64,000 nucleotides of DNA from Promethearchaeota archaeon (GCA_011364975.1 RDOE01000004.1:1-64000), one strand, 5' to 3'; positions 50,632 through 59,991 are shown, numbered from the stretch's first letter. Program-made: numbers and translations. Notes: generated by a model not told the origin, from the letters alone.

Positions 50632-51939
50632 ATGGGAAAAGATCCTAAAACAACCGCTGAAAATCAATTAAAAAAAGCAGAGCAACTATATAAAGCACGG
50701 CAATTTAAAAAAGCGGGCAAGAATTTTCATTCAGCGGGTATTTCTTTTCTTAAACTAGAAGAATATGAAATAGCTAAAAATTGTTTTCTTGAGGCGATAA
50801 AACCATTTTTAGAATTAGACAAATACGATACGATTTTAGAACTAATACGAAAGGCAAGCGAAGCTTGTTTGCAAAATAATCAATATTCAGAAGCGTTCCG
50901 ACTTTATAAAGATACAATGAACCACATCCCTAAATTAAAGAGTGAAACAGATAAAAATGATAATTATGTTCTCTTTTCTGTTTTATCCTATCTATGTTTA
51001 CATGCCAATGGTGCTCCTGAGGAAGGATTAGATTATATTAAAAGAAATAGAAATAAGATAGACAATGACTTCTTCAAAGAAAATAATTTGATTCAATTAA
51101 TTTCAGAGTTAACACTTTCCATCAGAGATAAAACGGAGAAATATCTTGAAAACATTCAAAATAATCTTAATCAATTTAAATTAAGAGATCCGGAAGTAAA
51201 ATTGTTAAAAGACGTTATACTGTTGACGAAATTTCAGCTTTTAATTGAAAGTTCTTTAATCTTAGATAAGGACACTTATACTACCAATGACATTATTAAT
51301 TTAAATGTGGAGTTAGACACCAATCCTCTCATTCAAGTGCTTAATAACTCATTTTTTAAATTTAAAATCAATAGTTTTCAAATTATTAAACTAATTGTAA
51401 GTCTTTCGGATAATTTAACCACCAATAAAAAGCCAGACTTACCGTTTTCATTAGATATTGGTAGTAAAATTACTTTACCTTTTACATTAAAACCTCACTT
51501 TCAATTGGATAACCCAAAGATAGGCCCTATAAACTTAACGTTTGAATTGAATAATCTACTAATTTTTAATTATGATACCTCCGTTATAATCCCAAATTTA
51601 ATTTCACCCCCTGCCTCCTTAGAGGCTTCAATAAAGAATTTACGCCCACCACTTTTAGATCAATCATTTCCATTAGAAATTTTAATTGAAAATCGAAGCC
51701 AAGGAGAAGCGCTAGATGTAAATATTGATGTTGAATTTCCTGAAGAGCTTAAACTTATGAGAGGCACCACAAATAAGCAAATATATTCATTAAGAAGTAA
51801 TGAAAATTTAAAATGGGAGGTCAACCTAAAACCCCTTGATGTAGGAGATTTCATCATTAAAATAAGTATAAAATTTAAAGATCCTGATGATAATCAAATC
51901 AACGATGTAAAAGAATTCCCCTTTTCAATAAAAATGTAA
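50632..51939 (+). CDS. TPR/SNAP-like alpha-solenoid + C-terminal Ig-like beta-sandwich protein
   Basis: Helical repeats AGKNFHSAG..F..LEEYEIAKNCFLEA. C-terminal FPLEILIEN..GEALDV..EFP..LKP..VGDF. Confidence 0.7.
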   Translation: MGKDPKTTAENQLKKAEQLYKARQFKKAGKNFHSAGISFLKLEEYEIAKNCFLEAIKPFLELDKYDTILELIRKASEACLQNNQYSEAFRLYKDTMNHIPKLKSETDKNDNYVLFSVLSYLCLHANGAPEEGLDYIKRNRNKIDNDFFKENNLIQLISELTLSIRDKTEKYLENIQNNLNQFKLRDPEVKLLKDVILLTKFQLLIESSLILDKDTYTTNDIINLNVELDTNPLIQVLNNSFFKFKINSFQIIKLIVSLSDNLTTNKKPDLPFSLDIGSKITLPFTLKPHFQLDNPKIGPINLTFELNNLLIFNYDTSVIIPNLISPPASLEASIKNLRPPLLDQSFPLEILIENRSQGEALDVNIDVEFPEELKLMRGTTNKQIYSLRSNENLKWEVNLKPLDVGDFIIKISIKFKDPDDNQINDVKEFPFSIKM

Positions 51940-53235: not shown

Positions 53236-54318
53236 ATGCAAACTTTTAAAATAATCCCTCAGTTTCGGGATAATTGCGTAATCCAAGGAAAGAAGGATTG
53301 GTTTCAGGATCTTAGTTTAGGAGATACGATATTTTTAATCGCAAATGAGCCTACTAAAAAATTCTCTATAATTACTAAAATAGATGGCATAGAGCCTGGA
53401 GAAGAACCAATTATATATGTAGATCAACGCAATTTGGAAAAATTTGCAGAAGGAGATAAGGTATATCTTTTAAAATATAACCCTGCAGAAGCAATTGAAG
53501 TTCGAATTCATATCTCCGATGAATATAGTCTTATTTCAAAAGGAGATTGGACCAAAAATATTAAACCTTCATTAACTAATAGATTGATTGATATAGGTCA
53601 AGAGATTTCCTTTTTAATTCCATGGGATGCGGGAGATCCAATTATCGGAGCAGGGCTAATAACCTCTACTTTGCCGAATCCTCCATTATTCATCGGTGAT
53701 CGAACAAAAATTATTTTAGATAAATTTTCTAATGAGATTCTTTCTAAACTTAAACGTCTTACGATACAAAGTAAAGAAGATCGAGTAGAGATACTGGAAA
53801 AACAAATAGAGCAAAATATCATAGAGTTTATTAAGAAAATAAAACATCAAAATTACCCCTTCAAAGGTCAAAAATATCAATTTAAAGCAACAAATCCAAA
53901 ACAATTATTTGAGTCTATTCTCACATTATTTAAAGGTTTGGATATAATAGAAGAACCAGTTGAAAAAAATTTTGATGAGAAAGATCAAGATTATTTTGCA
54001 TCAGTGGTCTTCTTAAATAGAGAAATTGTCCCATATTTACAACTGATTGATCTTCAAATTATTGGTCTTAAAAATACTGGCATGCTAATAATATGGGTTA
54101 CTGGAGAAAAGGAAGAGATTGTTGAAGAGACATTAAACAATTATAATACAAAAATATCAGCATTAAAACAAGGTTTAGAACAACATATAAACCTAGTAAG
54201 CATACAATGCCCAGAATGTGGCGGAGCTTTACCAATAAAAGATATTCAGATAAATGGTATTGTTGAATGTGCATACTGTGCTAGAATTTCTAAAATACCT
54301 AAAGCATTACGATATTAA
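53236..54318 (+). CDS. Cdc48/p97 N-domain-like protein (no ATPase) with C-terminal Zn ribbon
   Basis: IYVD...EGDKVYL....AEAIEVRI, L.NRLI..GQEI and ITSTLPNPP.FIGDRTKI resemble CDC48_N/CDC48_2. C-terminal CPECGG...CAYC. Confidence 0.6.
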   Translation: MQTFKIIPQFRDNCVIQGKKDWFQDLSLGDTIFLIANEPTKKFSIITKIDGIEPGEEPIIYVDQRNLEKFAEGDKVYLLKYNPAEAIEVRIHISDEYSLISKGDWTKNIKPSLTNRLIDIGQEISFLIPWDAGDPIIGAGLITSTLPNPPLFIGDRTKIILDKFSNEILSKLKRLTIQSKEDRVEILEKQIEQNIIEFIKKIKHQNYPFKGQKYQFKATNPKQLFESILTLFKGLDIIEEPVEKNFDEKDQDYFASVVFLNREIVPYLQLIDLQIIGLKNTGMLIIWVTGEKEEIVEETLNNYNTKISALKQGLEQHINLVSIQCPECGGALPIKDIQINGIVECAYCARISKIPKALRY

Positions 54319-54335
54319 TTAAAGTGGAATTAATC

Positions 54336-55157
54336 ATGGATGAAAACCGATATACTAGACTCAAAGCGCTAAAAGATTTTGGATATGAAATTAACTGGGA
54401 TGATTTAAAAAGAAAAAGCGTTGCTATTATTGGTATAGGAGGTTTAGGAACTGTAAGTTCAGAAATGGTGACACGGTGTGGAGTGGGAAAATTAGCTTTA
54501 TTTGACTTTGATACAGTTGAACCAGTTAATCTTAATAGAAGTATGTTTAAACCGAAGCATATTGGAAAACCAAAGGCAGAGATAGCCGCAAAAATATTAA
54601 ATGAAATCAATCCTGATGTTAAAATCTATTACTTTATTAAGGACATTATGGATATTGATTTTGAATTTACATTTGAAAAAGAACTTTCAAAGATGGACAT
54701 AATTCTTAACGGACTTGATAATATTTCTGCTAGAGAATACCTTAATAGTAAATGTGTAAAGTTGAGAATTCCATATATTGATGCTGGAGCTTCTCGCAGC
54801 GGATTATCGGGTTATATTCACCCCATTATTCCTTTCAAAACAGCATGTGCTAAATGTATTAAAAGTATAGCAATAAATCTTCCCGAAGAGAGAGGAGAGC
54901 CTTGTGTAGCATCTCTACCAACAACTATGGCGATACTAGCAAGTATTCAAGTGCAAGAAATGTTAAAACTTCTTCTAAAATTTGGTGAAATGATTGATTA
55001 TGTTATGTATCATATGATTACTGGACAATTCCTTCATTACAATACAAAGAAAGATAATAATTGTCCTATCTGTGGTATTAGAAAAAAAGACGGTAAAAGA
55101 ATAAAGTCAAAGGTTACAGATAAAGATATAGAGGATATAATTGAAAAAATAGAATAA
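54336..55157 (+). CDS. UBA5: UBA5-like ubiquitin-fold activating enzyme (E1, ThiF/MoeB fold)
   Basis: NRYTRLKALK..G, GIGGLGTVSSEMVTRCGVGKL, NLNR, Zn ligands CAKC/CPIC, and catalytic CVASLPTTM (human UBA5 CAASLPTTM, from memory). ORF track starts at GTG 54324; ATG 54336 is the likelier start. Confidence 0.85.
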   Translation: MDENRYTRLKALKDFGYEINWDDLKRKSVAIIGIGGLGTVSSEMVTRCGVGKLALFDFDTVEPVNLNRSMFKPKHIGKPKAEIAAKILNEINPDVKIYYFIKDIMDIDFEFTFEKELSKMDIILNGLDNISAREYLNSKCVKLRIPYIDAGASRSGLSGYIHPIIPFKTACAKCIKSIAINLPEERGEPCVASLPTTMAILASIQVQEMLKLLLKFGEMIDYVMYHMITGQFLHYNTKKDNNCPICGIRKKDGKRIKSKVTDKDIEDIIEKIE

Positions 55158-55169
55158 ATTAGGTGGTTT

Positions 55170-56366
55170 ATCATCAAAAGGATCCAAATACCCCAAATTT
55201 TCATTGAGGTCATTAAGAATCAAGCTATCCTTAGTTACGAAGAGATATATGGATGGCTAATTGGATATTCTGAGTCAAATGTAACTAAAGTGTTAGCAAT
55301 TTATGAATGTACACAATTTATAGAACAAACGGTTATCCATGCAATGCCAGATATATTAGAATTTCAAGAAATTAGTTCAGTTCTTCCTCAAGGTATTGGA
55401 CCAATAGGTATTTATCATTCTCATCCAAGCCTAAGTGATATTTTTCATTCTCATACTGATGATTCAACTCTGATAAGCTTAACAAATCAATTTCAAGATT
55501 GCATCTCAATAATTACTAATGGACAGAACATTAAATTCTACCAAATGGGGAAAAATTATAAAACTAAAGAAATAGAAGTTGAGTATATTGAACCGGAAGT
55601 ACCAAAATTTATGTTAGTTTCAATTAATGAAAAATTTGAAATTTTCATTGATCCCGAATTTTTAACTCAAGAAAAAAGTTTAAGTAAATTAAATATACAA
55701 ATTCAAAATTTAATCATAAATTATTTTCAAAATAACTGGAACGAATTAGAATTTACACATAATAACTCAATAATAGGAAATAAAGATAAATTGCATAAAT
55801 ATTTAGTAGAGAAGTTAAATACGGAACCATTACGGCTTAAAATTCCATCTAATTTAAAGCAGCGTCATAGAAATTTATTAAAAGTTATCCAGAAAGGCAA
55901 TAAGGATGATACTGTAAGTTACGAAGCTTTTGAATTTATTATTAATACAAAATTTCCACTCTATAATATTCGAAAGTATGATAATTTTGATACACTTAGT
56001 CAGAAAGTAAAGGATGAATTTTTAGGAAATAATCTCATTCAAAAATTGCATAATTTAATCATTGATAAAGAAAACCTTAGAATTATTATACCTAATGACT
56101 ATTATTTGAAGTTTTTTGGATTCTATATAAGAACTTTGAACTTCAATAAAAAAAACTTAAATGAAATCTTAATTAAGAATGAACCGTATAAGTTTGAATT
56201 GAAAATAATTCGCTTTTTGAAATCCTTCATAAATTTGGAAGTTTCAATTAAGTTTAAGAACTATTTATATGAGCTTTTGAATAATTTGGAAGATTTTGCT
56301 GAACATTTTACATGGAAAGAGAAATTAAGTGAAGATTTAAAACAACTCAAAATTAACTTAAAGTAG
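55170..56366 (+). CDS. JAB/MPN+ (JAMM) metalloprotease with long C-terminal extension; probable non-AUG start
   Basis: EEIYGWLIG (catalytic Glu) lies upstream of the track's GTG 55290. GIYHSHP...HSHTDD. AGGTGG RBS at 55161-66 precedes ATC codons at 55170/55173. Confidence 0.78.
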   Translation: MIKRIQIPQIFIEVIKNQAILSYEEIYGWLIGYSESNVTKVLAIYECTQFIEQTVIHAMPDILEFQEISSVLPQGIGPIGIYHSHPSLSDIFHSHTDDSTLISLTNQFQDCISIITNGQNIKFYQMGKNYKTKEIEVEYIEPEVPKFMLVSINEKFEIFIDPEFLTQEKSLSKLNIQIQNLIINYFQNNWNELEFTHNNSIIGNKDKLHKYLVEKLNTEPLRLKIPSNLKQRHRNLLKVIQKGNKDDTVSYEAFEFIINTKFPLYNIRKYDNFDTLSQKVKDEFLGNNLIQKLHNLIIDKENLRIIIPNDYYLKFFGFYIRTLNFNKKNLNEILIKNEPYKFELKIIRFLKSFINLEVSIKFKNYLYELLNNLEDFAEHFTWKEKLSEDLKQLKINLK

Positions 56367-56462
56367 TAATGAAATTATTAATATTGAAAACCAAAATTAA
56401 AAAAAAATAAAAGGAACATTTTTTTTAAATTTAATAAGATAAAAATCAGAGGTTAAAATATA

Positions 56463-56729
56463 ATGGCATCTGAATTAAATACCATCTATTTTGTTAATAA
56501 ATTTGGAACAGAAAAAAAGCAAGTGCCATTCCCTGTTTCAGCAAACATTAAATTAATGGATGTTGTTCCAGAAATCTCAAAAAAGTTTGGAATCTCTTCT
56601 CAAAATGTTTGTATTGCAAATATGGGAGGACAAGTACTAACTAATACAGACCTATTAAGTCCAATTAAAGAAATTGTTGAAAAGTTCGGAAATACTTTTG
56701 ATATTATTGATAGAGGGATTGTTGGGTGA
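56463..56729 (+). CDS. UFM1: UFM1-like ubiquitin-fold modifier ending in single-Gly VG
   Basis: 88 aa, beta-grasp pattern. C-terminus KFGNTFDIIDRGIVG parallels human UFM1 KHGSELRIIPRDRVG (from memory). GAGG RBS. Confidence 0.75.
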   Translation: MASELNTIYFVNKFGTEKKQVPFPVSANIKLMDVVPEISKKFGISSQNVCIANMGGQVLTNTDLLSPIKEIVEKFGNTFDIIDRGIVG

Positions 56730-57268
56730 CCAGTTCAGATAAAAGATGGCAAAGGTCTATAGTAGATGAATTAATTCAAGAATTTTCTAACAATTGGGTT
56801 TCCATAGGACCTAAAAATCCTGCATGGAAAGATCGGGTAAAGTTAGAGATCGAAAAAATTATGCAGTATATTAATTTCTTAAAGAATACTAAAAATAGAC
56901 CTTGGTTTAAGTTATTTCCAGAACGAAATCCTCGTTATAATTATTTAATTTGGGCAGGAAATTTGGTTGTGCCTGAACGATCTGAAATAAATTTCGATAT
57001 CAAAGTATTACTTACTTCTGAATATCCAAAAGTATGTCCAAGATGTTTCGCAGAAGAATCTATTTTAAATTACTGTGGTAAAATATTTTTGAAGAATATA
57101 TGGGAACAGGATAGTAAAAAGTACGTAATGATATGTCATGAACATATGTCTGATACTAATGCATGGAATGAGCGTCTTGGTATTGTTCATTTCTTTATAC
57201 GCCAGGTATGGGTATGGTGGGCTGCTCAACAAAATGTAATTATCCAAGAATATGATAAAAAACATTAA
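56726..57268 (+). CDS. UFC1: UFC1-like E2 conjugating enzyme
   Basis: GP...W..R.K.E...I.Y...KN...WF.L...W.G...FDI....YP..P...K...IC..H...W...G..H...W.A matches UFC1. Putative catalytic Cys137 (MICHEH). Start overlaps the UFM1 stop (GTGA). Confidence 0.82.
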   Translation: MTSSDKRWQRSIVDELIQEFSNNWVSIGPKNPAWKDRVKLEIEKIMQYINFLKNTKNRPWFKLFPERNPRYNYLIWAGNLVVPERSEINFDIKVLLTSEYPKVCPRCFAEESILNYCGKIFLKNIWEQDSKKYVMICHEHMSDTNAWNERLGIVHFFIRQVWVWWAAQQNVIIQEYDKKH

Positions 57269-57476
57269 TTTTTGGTATCATAACCTAGTTTTAAAAAAAT
57301 TATTTATTTCTTTAATTCATGCCTTCTTCTATGCATAAATTCAAGATAAACCGTTGTTTTAGTTGAATATTATAGTTTTATTATTAATGCAAAATGATGC
57401 AATATATACCCATTATGCAATTATTTAAATATAAGTATATCCATATAATATCATATAAAATAGCAAAGTAACAAGA

Positions 57477-58859
57477 ATGTCTAGAGAATCCAACCAACCC
57501 TCCAATACTAAGGATATGCCAATTAGCTTACAAGGGATTGAAAAAATCTTGATTTTTTTAAATAATAATGATAAAATCCTTTTTAGTATTAGAGAAATTG
57601 GTTACAAGACTAAGTTATCGACCCGAACGGTCAAAAATATTCTACTGCAATTAGAAAAATTTAATCAGGTTGAACGTGTCATTGAAGGGAATAATGTTAT
57701 CCCAAAATGGCAAATCACTAAATTCGGAAAAAGAGTATTAAAAGAAGCTAAGGGTGTTGGGAATAATATCACATTTTCTACAAGAGAAGAAGAATTGTTA
57801 AAAGGAATAGTGATACCTCAAGAAAAATTTCTTGATAATGATTTAAAAAAGACTTTAGATAGAGCACTATCTGAATTAAATACTATGCAAGTTGAAATAA
57901 GTAAAATTTTGGGGTCAATTCTTAATATAAATAATCCAATTTTAGAAGAAACTACTGGATTCATTTTAAAAAGAATCAAATTTCTCAAGCAAAAACTTAC
58001 TAATTTGTTTGATGACCGAACATCTCAAATTTCTAAAGTGGGTGAAAAATCAAAGAAATTTTCCAAAGAAGAGATAAAATTTAATAAAGTGGAAAAATTG
58101 CTCTTCAACTCATTAATTATTAATCAGATGAAGAGAATTTCAGATATAATTATAGATCTTTCCAATAATGTTGAACATCTAGAAGTTAATAATTCTCTCT
58201 CTCTTGCTAATGATTTAAGAGACGAGATTAGGATCATAAGTGACTTAATTAATCAAAGGGAATCATTAAAAATAGGTTTAAATATTCTTCTAAAAGAAGA
58301 TTTAAAACAACTTTCCAATAATAAAATTGCACCTGATATTCTGGATAAAATAATTGAGATTCCCTTGTCTGAGGATATTTTAGGGAGAGAAGTTGGAGAA
58401 ACGGTACTAACGTTATTAAACAGGTTAAATAAAAATGAGACAGTTCTTATAGATCATAATTATGAATTGACAGATTTTATTCCTTTGTTTAAACTCTTTC
58501 AGCTTATTTTAGATGAAAAGCCCAATTTAAACTTTACCATCGATAAATTAGAAGAAACAATCAATGAACTCTCTGAACAAGGATACATCCCTGGAATGAA
58601 AACTATTCGGGATGCAGAAAACAATTATTTGAAAGTAGTTCAACTTAAACCTCATGATGTTTCACAAGATGAGATAGAATTAGTAAAAATTGCATTGAAG
58701 CAAGAAAAGTTTACTCTCGCAGATATTATCAAATTAACAGGTTGGTCTCCAGAACACGCATCAGAACTTTTAAATAAGCTAACAAAGCTTGGAATATTAA
58801 ACTATTCCAGGTCTTTTTTACATGGAGAACGATGGTTTGTTATAACCGAGCAAAAATAA
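57477..58859 (+). CDS. N-terminal winged HTH + helical region + C-terminal ESCRT-II (EAP30/Vps22/36)-like tandem winged helix
   Basis: FSIREIGYKTKLSTRTVKNILLQLEK HTH. C-terminal VVQLKPHDVSQDEIELVKIA...TLADI...GWSPEHASELLNKL.KLG...GERWF. Confidence 0.65.
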   Translation: MSRESNQPSNTKDMPISLQGIEKILIFLNNNDKILFSIREIGYKTKLSTRTVKNILLQLEKFNQVERVIEGNNVIPKWQITKFGKRVLKEAKGVGNNITFSTREEELLKGIVIPQEKFLDNDLKKTLDRALSELNTMQVEISKILGSILNINNPILEETTGFILKRIKFLKQKLTNLFDDRTSQISKVGEKSKKFSKEEIKFNKVEKLLFNSLIINQMKRISDIIIDLSNNVEHLEVNNSLSLANDLRDEIRIISDLINQRESLKIGLNILLKEDLKQLSNNKIAPDILDKIIEIPLSEDILGREVGETVLTLLNRLNKNETVLIDHNYELTDFIPLFKLFQLILDEKPNLNFTIDKLEETINELSEQGYIPGMKTIRDAENNYLKVVQLKPHDVSQDEIELVKIALKQEKFTLADIIKLTGWSPEHASELLNKLTKLGILNYSRSFLHGERWFVITEQK

Positions 58860-58890
58860 TAAATTTAAATTAAAAAGTGAGGATGGAGTA

Positions 58891-59991
58891 ATGTATAAGG
58901 AAATAAAAGGTAAAAGTGTTGTTGATTCCGAGCCAGAGATTATTGCTTGGCAACGTCATGGGATTGATACTAAAAATGGGCCGCTAATTTATGTATTTCC
59001 TAAACCAGGTGATGATATAAAAAGCAAGAAATTTTTTGCTGTAAAAGATTATGAAAGAGCATTATTTTATAATAAGGGAGAACTTCTAGGAGTCCTCGGG
59101 GGCGGGGTCTATGAACTAGAGAAAAAGGCAAAAATAAAGGGGACGGAGATCGTTTGGATTGACACCTCTTTTGTAGACATCCAGTGGGGAATACCACAAT
59201 CTAGTGGTATACCCACTTTGGATGGTACTATTCTCGGTTTACATGGAGATCTAAAATTGAAAATAAGGGATGTTAAAATATTTTACAATGATGTAGTAGC
59301 TGGTAAAAGCCCTTGGACCGTTCAAAATCTGAAAGAATTTATAATGAGTCTACTGCATACATCCTTTAGAGATATATTTAAAAAATATAAGGCTAAACAA
59401 GTTTTACTAGAGGAGCGAGAGCGAATAATTAATCTACTTACAGCGAAGGTCGCCGAGGATTTTTTAAGATATGGTTTAGAGCTAGAAACCTTGAATATAC
59501 TTGGTGTTAAAACCTCTGAAGGTACAGAAACTCTTTTTAGAGTAGAAAAAGAAAAAAGTAATGTTTCAGATGAGATCGAAATTTTAAAAATAAAAAAAGA
59601 TCTTGACGCTCAAAAAATGGAATTAGAGGCTGCTAAACGAGAATTTCATCGAAAAGAAGAGATTTTAGATTCTCGTATGGAATTGGAAAAATCTAAACTT
59701 CAAACTGAGGCAGAAAAGATTGAGGGAGAAGCTAAATCTGCTGTGTTGGAAAAACACGCTAGAGCGGCTGTAGCAGGAGAGATGAGAATATTGGAGGTTC
59801 ATGGAGATAAAGCATTAGAAATCGCAGATAGTAGTAGAAAGGATCAAATTCGGGCTAAGATTGATGAATTAAAAGAAAAGTTAGATAAATTTGATAATTT
59901 ATTAGCAGAAGATAAAATTTCAAAGGATATTTATAAAACAAGAGTAGAGCGAATTGAAAAAGAACTGAAAGCGCTTGAACAACAACTTTAA
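58891..59991 (+). CDS. SPFH/Band-7 domain protein with coiled coil and SHOCT-like C-terminus
   Basis: VKDYERALFYNKGELLGVLGGGVY, F.RYGLELETLNI, long E/K-rich coiled coil, LAEDKISKDIYKTRVERI. Confidence 0.8.
   Translation: MYKEIKGKSVVDSEPEIIAWQRHGIDTKNGPLIYVFPKPGDDIKSKKFFAVKDYERALFYNKGELLGVLGGGVYELEKKAKIKGTEIVWIDTSFVDIQWGIPQSSGIPTLDGTILGLHGDLKLKIRDVKIFYNDVVAGKSPWTVQNLKEFIMSLLHTSFRDIFKKYKAKQVLLEERERIINLLTAKVAEDFLRYGLELETLNILGVKTSEGTETLFRVEKEKSNVSDEIEILKIKKDLDAQKMELEAAKREFHRKEEILDSRMELEKSKLQTEAEKIEGEAKSAVLEKHARAAVAGEMRILEVHGDKALEIADSSRKDQIRAKIDELKEKLDKFDNLLAEDKISKDIYKTRVERIEKELKALEQQL

Follow-up and report, generated by a model that had tools for sequence, protein, structure and literature searches.

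In the window analysed here, i.e., the whole 64,000-nucleotide stretch of Promethearchaeota DNA (GCA_011364975.1 RDOE01000004.1:1-64000), seven genes of one direction (53236-59991, plus strand) form an operon that is very probably a working UFM1-type ubiquitin-like conjugation cassette of an Asgard archaeon (Promethearchaeota/Lokiarchaeia). The operon encodes a UBA5-like E1, a JAMM protease, a UFM1-fold modifier and a UFC1-like E2, which are accompanied by a zinc-ribbon protein (gene 1), a winged-helix protein (gene 6) and an SPFH protein (gene 7). The confidence expressed here applies to the core of the cassette and not to its role, and it is founded on family assignment, conserved catalytic residues, linkage and gene fusions; the chemical steps, the targets and the scaffold role discussed below are proposals. 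An initial annotation of the window had described a complete cognate cassette of this kind, and that description is now supported by profile, structure-model, tree and synteny evidence. The seven co-oriented genes with their GTGA overlap were found where it had placed them, and the translations show the E1 motifs that it quoted, the modifier's VG end and an E2 with no HPN motif. Its assignments of the UBA5/JAMM/UFM1/UFC1 core and of the SPFH gene were retained, its Cdc48-N assignment found no support and its ESCRT-II-like assignment was narrowed to the C-terminus of gene 6. Of the conserved ubiquitin-like pathways, UFMylation is understood least; in eukaryotes it comprises UBA5, UFC1 and UFM1, with UFL1-DDRGK1-CDK5RAP3 as E3 and UFSP1/2 as proteases.

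The E1 matches Pfam ThiF (PF00899) at 9e-53, and in a search of PDB sequences its five best matches were human UBA5 (1.3e-49, 172 bits, to 4.3e-44), followed by MoeB at 1.7e-26 (97 bits). The MoeB/ThiF models of NCBIfam match it at 1e-35 to 1e-31, all far under their own cut-offs, and the NCBIfam UbaA model gives 84 bits, its cut-off being 450. In the PDB search alignment the stretch around Cys194 lies opposite '...caaslpttm' of UBA5, the Cys of which we take to be the UBA5 catalytic residue. Cys194 is among the residues conserved to at least 95% in 29 cassette E1s, together with G37/G39/G40/G42, R72, K84, D132, C175, C178, C247 and C250. The protein ends about 27 residues past the last CxxC with a short acidic amphipathic tail, which is common to most cassette E1s and found no match in PDB. 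For the phylogeny 1.84 billion representatives were searched (49 proteins at <=1e-30) and the best 150 were taken; FastTree was run on all 149 rows with at least 180 aligned residues, and IQ-TREE (LG+G4) on 66 rows, each clade being thinned and the long-branch P0154, P0190, P0223 and P0262 left out. The IQ-TREE phylogeny contains a UBA5-like clade of 41 rows (support 99/97) apart from 25 MoeB/ThiF-like rows, and within it 11 cassette E1s form one clade (99/98); the FastTree grouping is the same. The eukaryotes fall in a clade of 23 rows (100/99), also inside the UBA5-like clade, and among the 17 of its members that were looked up seven bear eukaryotic names (Volvox, Neoechinorhynchus, Anisakis, Symbiodinium, Trichinella and two EukProt entries), two carry only the JGI function name 'UBA5' and eight are nameless, the short ones of which may be non-eukaryotic. 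Judged by its sequence, the E1 is of UBA5 type, and the initial annotation was right to separate it from generic ThiF/MoeB proteins, as the PDB ranking and the 99/97 clade indicate. Some cassette E1s are already labelled 'UBA5' in JGI annotation.

The E2 scores 26.3 bits with Pfam UFC1 (PF08694), just above the curated cut-off of 25, over profile positions 13-91 of 155. With phmmer the 25 best PDB chains were all UFC1 (3e-4 to 2e-3), and with a profile built from 27 cassette E2s the first 26 chains were UFC1 (2.6e-6 to 1.4e-5), the next chain following at 0.023. Its AlphaFold model (AF2; mean predicted local distance difference test, pLDDT, 88.7) was compared with known structures by Foldseek, where ranks 1-29 were all UFC1 with template-modelling (TM) scores of 0.63-0.67 and the next matches had TM <=0.39. 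In VIA-align 28 UFC1 entries were aligned at Z 13.6-16.1 and a root-mean-square deviation (rmsd) of 2.6-3.6 A over 149-158 residues, whereas other E2s reached Z <=9.4 and their alignment begins only near residue 30. The protein has no HPN motif, as had been claimed. Its sole near-invariant Cys is Cys137 (26 of 27 rows), which is followed by the invariant H138 and H140; given this conservation, and assuming a hairpin insertion of about 15-20 residues before it, Cys137 would be the equivalent of the UFC1 active site. About half of 54 clusters of E2 homologues carry a precomputed PF08694 match, and every source name among them is 'hypothetical protein'.

The modifier was recognised by its predicted fold. 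In the Foldseek search of its AF2 model (pLDDT 89.9) the top 8 matches were UFM1 (TM 0.79-0.84), and in VIA the 11 best entries had Z 11.8-14.4 and rmsd 1.0-3.0 A over 74-85 residues, the next entry having Z 10.8; nine of these 11 are named UFM1 and the other two, 1l7y and 1j0g, are presumably UFM1 orthologues. The model thus points to a modifier of UFM1 fold. V87 and G88 are invariant in 25 modifier sequences, which agrees with the single-Gly VG end that the initial annotation had likened to that of UFM1. Among the C-terminal ends of 32 modifiers, that of the window included, 18 are VG followed by a stop codon, five have 1-3 extra residues (two residues in Lokiarchaeum ossiferum) and nine continue in frame into the E2 (...VG|E2). 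These Ubl-E2 fusions (Ubl, ubiquitin-like modifier), 266-275 aa long, are given as single proteins in public gene calls too. Such fusions and C-terminal tails call for a protease with cleavage after VG, for which the linked JAMM protein is the obvious candidate. A predicted complex of the E2 and the modifier with gene 1 as partner scored 0.63 vs 0.67 for a control, a result that weighs on neither side of the question of binding.

The protease gene is present as the initial annotation had it, but the start listed for its ORF, a GTG at 55290, is situated downstream of the catalytic Glu. An open frame extends upstream to 55158 and holds no ATG, GTG or TTG before that GTG. Translated from 55173, the protein scores 31.4 bits with Prok-JAB (cut-off 25) vs 21 bits from the GTG, and in PDB it matches the Caldiarchaeum Rpn11-like protease best (2e-3), the Glu, HxH and S..D positions being aligned. 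At 55173 the window has ATC, which is preceded by AGGTGG and 6 nt. Protease starts were examined in 17 relatives, 13 of them in the window's family: seven have GGTGA or GGTGG, 6 nt and then ATA or ATT, one has ATG at this place, and several others have ordinary ATG or GTG starts. A near-cognate start thereby appears to be conserved in the protease gene, and since the Shine-Dalgarno (SD), 6 nt, ATH arrangement recurs in seven relatives it would be a feature of the gene and not a mark of decay. At such a start gene callers will shorten the protease. In several relatives the TGA inside GGTGA sits in the protease frame just upstream of the start. Possibly, reinitiation at the protease gene is coupled to the E1 stop and keeps the amount of protease low.

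The cassette recurs well beyond the window. Gene neighbourhoods were collected for 33 E2 loci of 32 other Asgard genomes by an iterated hidden Markov model (HMM) search of stop-to-stop open reading frames (ORFs), and the modifier was found at 32 of these loci, the JAB protease at 30, the E1 at 29, gene 1 at 27, the SPFH gene at 22 and gene 6 at 18, these counts being lower bounds since many loci are contigs of 2-7 kb. As the same gene set recurs in so many other genomes, the cassette is not a chance association, and the synteny survey across Asgard genomes finds the linkage on which the initial annotation had built to be conserved. Gene order is shuffled across the loci, even within a genus, with the gene 6-SPFH pair lying downstream, upstream or divergently, and the four genes that flank the cassette in the window (two upstream, two downstream) recur at none of the 33 loci; the linkage has therefore been kept through rearrangement. 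A scan with two peptide patterns over one genome per species (185,579 species), in which distant forms of the cassette could be missed since only these two patterns were used, returned 37 loci, of which 27 are Asgard-named, including those of Lokiarchaeum ossiferum and two closed Heimdallarchaeum genomes, eight bear the name 'uncultured archaeon' and two belong to one 'Patescibacteria group bacterium' metagenome-assembled genome. The two contigs of the latter (JANBVM010000027.1 and 30.1; L088, L099) carry E2 fragments 79-86% identical to the window's E2, and they are most likely mis-binned Asgard DNA. Counting that of the window, 37 of 400 genomes in the phylum have the E2, as do 9 of 90 high-quality genomes and 5 of 41 other genomes of the same genus, and many cassette-less genomes of that genus are 95-100% complete. 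Two genomes, G260 and G276, hold short E2 remnants with stop codons.

Several findings, however, speak against this assignment or narrow it. The modifier has no significant sequence match to UFM1 in the Pfam, NCBIfam and PDB searches: the Pfam Ufm1 profile (PF03671) matched neither the modifier nor anything else in the window's genome, and a profile of 25 modifiers reached UFM1 of PDB at E 0.91. The E2 had been said to follow the UFC1 pattern along its whole length, which holds for the fold (149-158 aligned residues), but the sequence match is limited to the first ~100 residues, and HMMER puts the UFC1 active-site Cys ('...kicl...') opposite Phe121 of the E2. The protease of the window is intact only if the non-canonical ATC is used as its start. 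The E1 is devoid of the long C-terminal extension of eukaryotic UBA5, which bears the UFM1- and UFC1-binding motifs. In its tree the nearest sister of the eukaryote-containing clade is not the Asgard cassette but three nameless metagenome proteins (P0126, P0139 and P0146; 96/87), and the Asgard cassette E1s join the group of eukaryotes and metagenome proteins at only 85/65; since the metagenome proteins sit closer and the Asgard branch joins with such support, the cassette E1 is not established as the direct ancestor of eukaryotic UBA5. One of the three sister proteins, P0146, has no close match in the 400 Asgard genomes (best 37-40% identity). Finally, the scaffold role of genes 1 and 6 is no more than a proposal.

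The window corresponds to contig C149 of a 3.74-Mb genome of 200 contigs (G000; completeness 99%, contamination 6%) and is AT-rich, with a G+C content of ~30%. All seven frames of the operon are open, and the gaps from gene 1 to gene 7 are 5, 15 (132 if the listed GTG start of the protease is used), 96, -4, 208 and 31 nt, the negative value standing for the GTGA at 56726-56729 that is shared by the TGA stop of the modifier and the GTG start of the E2. Metagenome contigs from four runs of four studies span parts of the stretch, among them the junction of the E1 and protease genes and the overlap of modifier and E2, and no indel is listed in them. The features are collected in the table.

Features of the cassette region (positions counted from the first nucleotide of the window)
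Feature	Position	Strand	Basis or remark
Gene 1: 360 aa, C-terminal C4 zinc ribbon (~residues 323-351)	53236..54318	+	ORF; candidate scaffold, adaptor or target
UBA5-like E1: 277 aa, ThiF adenylation domain including putative catalytic Cys194, two CxxC pairs	54324..55157	+	Pfam, PDB search, tree
Shine-Dalgarno-like AGGTGG, 6 nt before the inferred ATC start of the protease gene	55161..55166	+	Sequence; pattern in relatives
JAMM/MPN+ metalloprotease: 397 aa from the inferred ATC, C-terminal region of ~270 aa without family match	55173..56366	+	Prok-JAB match
UFM1-fold modifier: 88 aa, encoded in mature form, ends Val87-Gly88	56463..56729	+	AF2 model, Foldseek, VIA
UFC1-like E2: 180 aa, putative catalytic Cys137 in MICH[ED]HM, no HPN	56726..57268	+	Pfam UFC1, profile, AF2 model
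Gene 6: winged-helix protein, 460 aa; N-terminal winged helix-turn-helix, long helical middle, ESCRT-II-like tandem winged helix ~338-460	57477..58859	+	hhalign
Gene 7: SPFH/Band-7 protein, 366 aa, C-terminal coiled-coil-like region (read from sequence)	58891..59991	+	Pfam

The partner proteins are less readily placed. Gene 1 had been called Cdc48-N-like and thereby tied to p97, for which no support was obtained: Pfam gives only zinc-ribbon matches (Zn_ribbon_LysW in 13 of 21 aligned members, all under the cut-off), CDC48_N was matched by none of the 21 members, and hhalign against the N-domain of the genome's own Cdc48 returned a probability of 0.6%. A gene 1 profile likewise found only zinc ribbons in PDB, at 0.025 or worse, and the search of the protein atlas gave no usable match. 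Among the best 120 of 128 clusters of gene 1 homologues (E <=0.001) three have a TIR domain at the N-terminus (P0439, P0445 and P0449, 538-555 aa; TIR_2 at 1.5e-14 and 6.8e-11 in the two that were scanned). In Lokiarchaeum ossiferum (CP104013.1; L044:5573-6964, minus strand) the gene 1 body (HMM 1-315) is fused to the gene 6 winged-helix pair (HMM 289-453) in a single protein of 464 aa, the pair replacing the zinc ribbon, and this fusion argues that genes 1 and 6 act together. In that genome the E1, the JAB protease and the fusion gene are divergent from the Ubl and E2, and no SPFH gene lies within 10 kb.

Gene 6 shows weak winged helix-turn-helix matches at both ends in Pfam. The ESCRT-II-like character, which the initial annotation had ascribed to the neighbourhood of the cassette, stands for the last ~120 residues of this protein: hhalign of the gene 6 alignment (A4) with the genome's own EAP30 (PF04157) protein gave a probability of 96.3% (E 1.7e-9, 119 columns). 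PF04157 itself matches 5 of 12 gene 6 members, with E down to 2.7e-4, the window's protein being under the Pfam threshold. The best PDB match is SNF8 (0.095), and EAP30 clusters take ranks 2-3 in the protein atlas (0.84-0.85), which is a lead only. In Heimdall loci a gene of 348-359 aa between the E2 and SPFH genes, which the HMM search had in part overlooked, is homologous to gene 6 (hhalign 79%, E 1.6e-5, 303 columns), and the corresponding gene of L042 matches EAP30 at 1e-5. Gene 7 was confirmed as an SPFH protein by Band_7 (PF01145, 2e-10, 41.4 bits, cut-off 23.6) and Band_7_1 (PF13421, 3e-10, 40.5 bits, cut-off 24); no transmembrane segment was seen in it by eye.

It had also been stated that no UFL1 or UFSP gene is present. 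This is true of the operon, where UFL1 and DDRGK1 (PF09743, PF09756) have no Pfam match, but the window's genome encodes on another contig (C162; L100:808-3177), unlinked to the cassette, a 789-aa PCI/UFL1 (E3_UFM1_ligase)/DDRGK winged-helix protein with a C-terminal VPS28 domain. This architecture was described for Asgard archaea in the part of the report that was available (10.1101/2020.10.19.343400). Gene 6 was considered as a UFL1-like protein and rejected, as hhalign with the UFL1-like protein of the genome gave a probability of 0.2%. The UFSP profile (PF07910) had no match in the window's genome, and since the control search also matched 0 of 14 genomes this result is uninformative.

Some relatives depart from the common form of the cassette. 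One genome of the window's genus, G241, holds two cassettes (L033 on contig C77 and L034 on contig C49), the E2s of which are 81-82% identical to that of the window, and one of the two is interrupted by extra genes and has no gene 6-SPFH pair nearby. In G241 and G228 the cassettes are interrupted by leucine-rich repeat (LRR), Arf-like GTPase, membrane and other genes with differing N-terminal parts (L033:5473-7002, L033:8282-9331, L037:1203-2546, L037:3753-4688, L037:5542-7140, L037:7228-7980). By eye, the inserted proteins have in common a C-terminal module of ~70 aa and a conserved acidic tail, two of them scoring as PCI-type winged helices above the Pfam cut-off, and two genes with the same module lie elsewhere in the window's genome (G000:C136:14878-15863); the proteins with this module may be adaptors or targets. 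A single gene of G153 (L049:9334-12024, minus strand) encodes an 897-aa frame that joins a SIR2-like domain, TPR, a UFC1-like E2 with the conserved Cys changed to Ser, and a C-terminal Ubl-like segment, and no E1 or JAB gene lies in the 9 kb upstream of it, where the contig ends.

The following mechanism is proposed for the cassette. The UBA5-like E1 would adenylate Gly88 of the modifier and take it onto Cys194, from where the modifier would pass to Cys137 of the E2 and then to lysines of target proteins. The JAMM protease would cut after VG and so free the modifier from the Ubl-E2 fusion precursors and short pro-peptides of relatives, and probably it also strips the modifier from targets. Genes 1 and 6 may together provide a non-catalytic scaffold or adaptor, E3-like or target-presenting, and the SPFH protein may serve as a membrane-proximal platform. 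Such a cassette is a minimal system that can be rebuilt in vitro, the natural Ubl-E2 fusions being ready substrates for the protease, and as the culturable Lokiarchaeum ossiferum carries it, targets can be sought directly.

Two explanations would deny the operon a function in protein conjugation. One may ask if the E1 and the beta-grasp protein are a sulfur-carrier pair of the ThiS/MoaD/SAMP kind that works in cofactor synthesis or tRNA thiolation. The E1 does belong to the ThiF/MoeB superfamily, with the sub-cut-off NCBIfam matches (1e-35 to 1e-31) given above, and archaeal SAMPs do both conjugation and sulfur-carrier work; nevertheless the E1 is much nearer to UBA5 than to MoeB/ThiF, the modifier ends in VG and not GG, the modifier is translationally coupled or fused to an E2 with a conserved Cys, no rhodanese was found in the Pfam scan and no thiamine or molybdopterin genes are linked, which makes such a pair very improbable. 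An assembly artefact or decaying remnant, with the start-less protease as a pseudogene, deserves even less credence. It could draw on the protease gene having no ATG, GTG or TTG from the E1 stop up to its conserved N-terminal part and on the remnants seen in other genomes, but seven frames are open, contigs of four runs and four studies are free of indels, the catalytic residues are conserved, and the SD, 6 nt, ATH arrangement is met in seven relatives, with ATG in another.

If the operon is a working UFM1-type cassette, its role has still to be chosen, and it is best regarded as an accessory, conditionally used tagging system. A function in conflict or stress, directed against viruses or mobile elements, in which conjugation marks invader proteins or switches an effector on, comes close to an even prospect. 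It is in keeping with the patchy occurrence (37/400 genomes, 9/90 high-quality, 5/41 in the genus), the decayed remnants of G260 and G276, the two copies in G241, the order rearranged even within the genus, the TIR-gene 1 fusions (3 among the best 120 of 128 clusters), the single 897-aa SIR2-TPR-E2-Ubl-like relative and the LRR, Arf-like GTPase and membrane proteins inserted in the cassette in two genomes; moreover the parts list of E1, E2, JAB and Ubl equals that of the bacterial Bil-type operons. Yet PADLOC models match only the generic Rossmann core of the E1 and none fits the Ubl, the JAB or genes 1, 6 and 7, the flanking genes have a housekeeping look, fusions to TIR or SIR2 make up only a small share, and the fixed seven-gene set with its SPFH and ESCRT-II-like parts is more uniform across Loki and Heimdall genomes than is typical of defence. 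The tree of cassette E1s roughly tracks taxonomy as well, so patchiness may come from loss and not from transfer. The role favoured in the initial annotation, i.e., a housekeeping pathway of membrane or ribosome quality control in functional continuity with eukaryotic UFMylation, such as the tagging of uL24 or of stalled membrane-bound complexes in SPFH assemblies, is possible, if rather doubtful. Among the prokaryotic proteins found here none is closer to the eukaryotic UFM1 trio than the E1, E2 and Ubl of the cassette, linkage to SPFH and ESCRT-II-like winged-helix proteins is conserved, a UFL1/DDRGK/PCI-type protein exists in the same genome, and in bacteria and eukaryotes the quality control of membrane proteins is organised by SPFH scaffolds. 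On the other hand, some nine tenths of the phylum's genomes, complete ones included, lack the cassette, the UFL1-like gene is on another contig and is not similar to gene 6 (hhalign 0.2%), and no ribosomal or translocon genes are linked. Since the distribution is patchy and TIR or SIR2 fusions occur in rare relatives, housekeeping quality control is no likelier than a role in conflict or stress; the ancestral membrane quality-control, or antiviral, pathway of the initial annotation thus stays conjectural, with the evidence tilting to its antiviral side. Some other role of the tagging system is unlikely.

The likeness of the cassette to eukaryotic UFMylation concerns the catalytic parts. Its E1 lies inside the UBA5 clade and has the putative catalytic Cys within the adenylation domain, its E2, without HPN, folds like UFC1 along the whole length, also in the N-terminal part that is missing from canonical E2s, and its modifier has the UFM1 fold and a VG end, with pro-peptides of 1-3 residues in some relatives. 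Unlike in eukaryotes, all the parts are in one operon, the protease is a JAMM metalloprotease and not a UFSP cysteine protease, UFL1/DDRGK1 are absent from the operon, the E1 has 277 aa and no long C-terminal tail, the E2 presumably carries ~15-20 extra residues before the conserved Cys and is fused to the modifier in 9 of 32 cases, and the partners are zinc-ribbon, ESCRT-II-like winged-helix and SPFH proteins.

Prokaryotic systems with a comparable composition have been reported. Haloferax sampylation (SAMP/UbaA/HvJAMM1) has, like the cassette, an archaeal beta-grasp modifier, a ThiF-type E1 and a JAMM protease, but it works without an E2 and its modifiers end in GG. The bacterial E1-E2-JAB(-Ubl) conflict operons (CBASS Cap2/Cap3, Bil, Bub, 6A-MBL) have the same four kinds of parts, are patchy and show occasional TIR/SIR2 fusions in relatives, whereas the PADLOC and NCBIfam models fit only the E1 core of the cassette, far under its UBA5 scores (PADLOC 'E1-E2': E1 Rossmann core <=61.5 bits, E2 15.6 bits, no match to JAB or Ubl), and the cassette E1 and E2 are separate proteins. 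In the archaeal ubiquitin operons of Caldiarchaeum subterraneum and Asgard archaea an E1, an E2, a modifier and a JAMM protease are likewise encoded together (PMC6043591, PMC9192718). The Caldiarchaeum Rpn11-like enzyme processes pro-ubiquitin, and the Asgard Ub-E1-E2-RING-Rpn11 clusters are also linked to ESCRT-type genes. The cassette differs from these operons in being of UFM1/UBA5/UFC1 and not of ubiquitin/UBA1/UBC type, in lacking a RING protein and in its VG instead of GG.

As to the origin of UFMylation, it was reported that UFM1, UFC1, UFSP2 and C53 occur in eukaryotes only, that UFL1 and DDRGK1 stem from Asgard archaea, and that UBA5 occurs in archaea and bacteria and is probably of bacterial origin (PMC10183829, the available portion). 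In the accessible portion of another study Ufm1 homologues are described in nine Asgard clades and in no other prokaryote, and its main text contains neither 'UFC1' nor 'UBA5' (PMC12962969). Neither an archaeal UFC1 nor this operon was found described in the literature covered, supplements and most subscription journals lying outside it. Within the searched literature, Asgard homologues of Ufm1 and UBA5 were thus already known, but a UFC1 and the operon form were not; new here are the organisation of a UFM1-type cascade as an operon, its JAMM protease, the natural Ubl-E2 fusions and a novel set of partner genes. Because a cognate E1-E2-modifier-protease operon exists in Asgard archaea, the catalytic core of UFMylation may have been inherited as a unit, which suggests that the pathway existed as such before eukaryotes. 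A bolder proposition, put forward only tentatively and somewhat short of an even prospect, is that the operon is the surviving prokaryotic form of the ancestor of UFMylation: E1, E2 and modifier would have been inherited together from an Asgard ancestor, where, together with a JAMM protease and a scaffold of zinc-ribbon and ESCRT-II-like proteins, they would have served as a tagging system for stress or immunity close to the membrane, and eukaryotes would have swapped the protease for UFSP and the scaffold for UFL1-DDRGK1. If true, such common Asgard inheritance would overturn the published account, in which UFC1 and UFM1 arose in eukaryotes and UBA5 is of bacterial descent. The TIR and SIR2 fusions also lead to a hypothesis that is open to test, namely that a pathway of quality control in eukaryotes started out as a conflict system of archaea.

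Beyond the cassette, a scan of the window for sigma-70 promoters and terminators gave counts equal to those of shuffled sequences, the models being unsuited to archaea. The flanks are housekeeping-like, with an M24 peptidase (by reading of the translation) and a pectate-lyase-like protein (Pfam). An upstream gene of 435 aa (50632-51939), which is not kept beside the cassette in relatives, has weak, sub-threshold similarity to SNAP/TPR at the N-terminus and to a TRAPPC13_C and TRAP_beta-like beta-sandwich at the C-terminus. Low-depth metagenome contigs from two runs (X1, X4) join position 56409 to 56879 through 8 other letters, thus removing the modifier gene and the start of the E2, and these may represent a strain variant or a contig of a relative.

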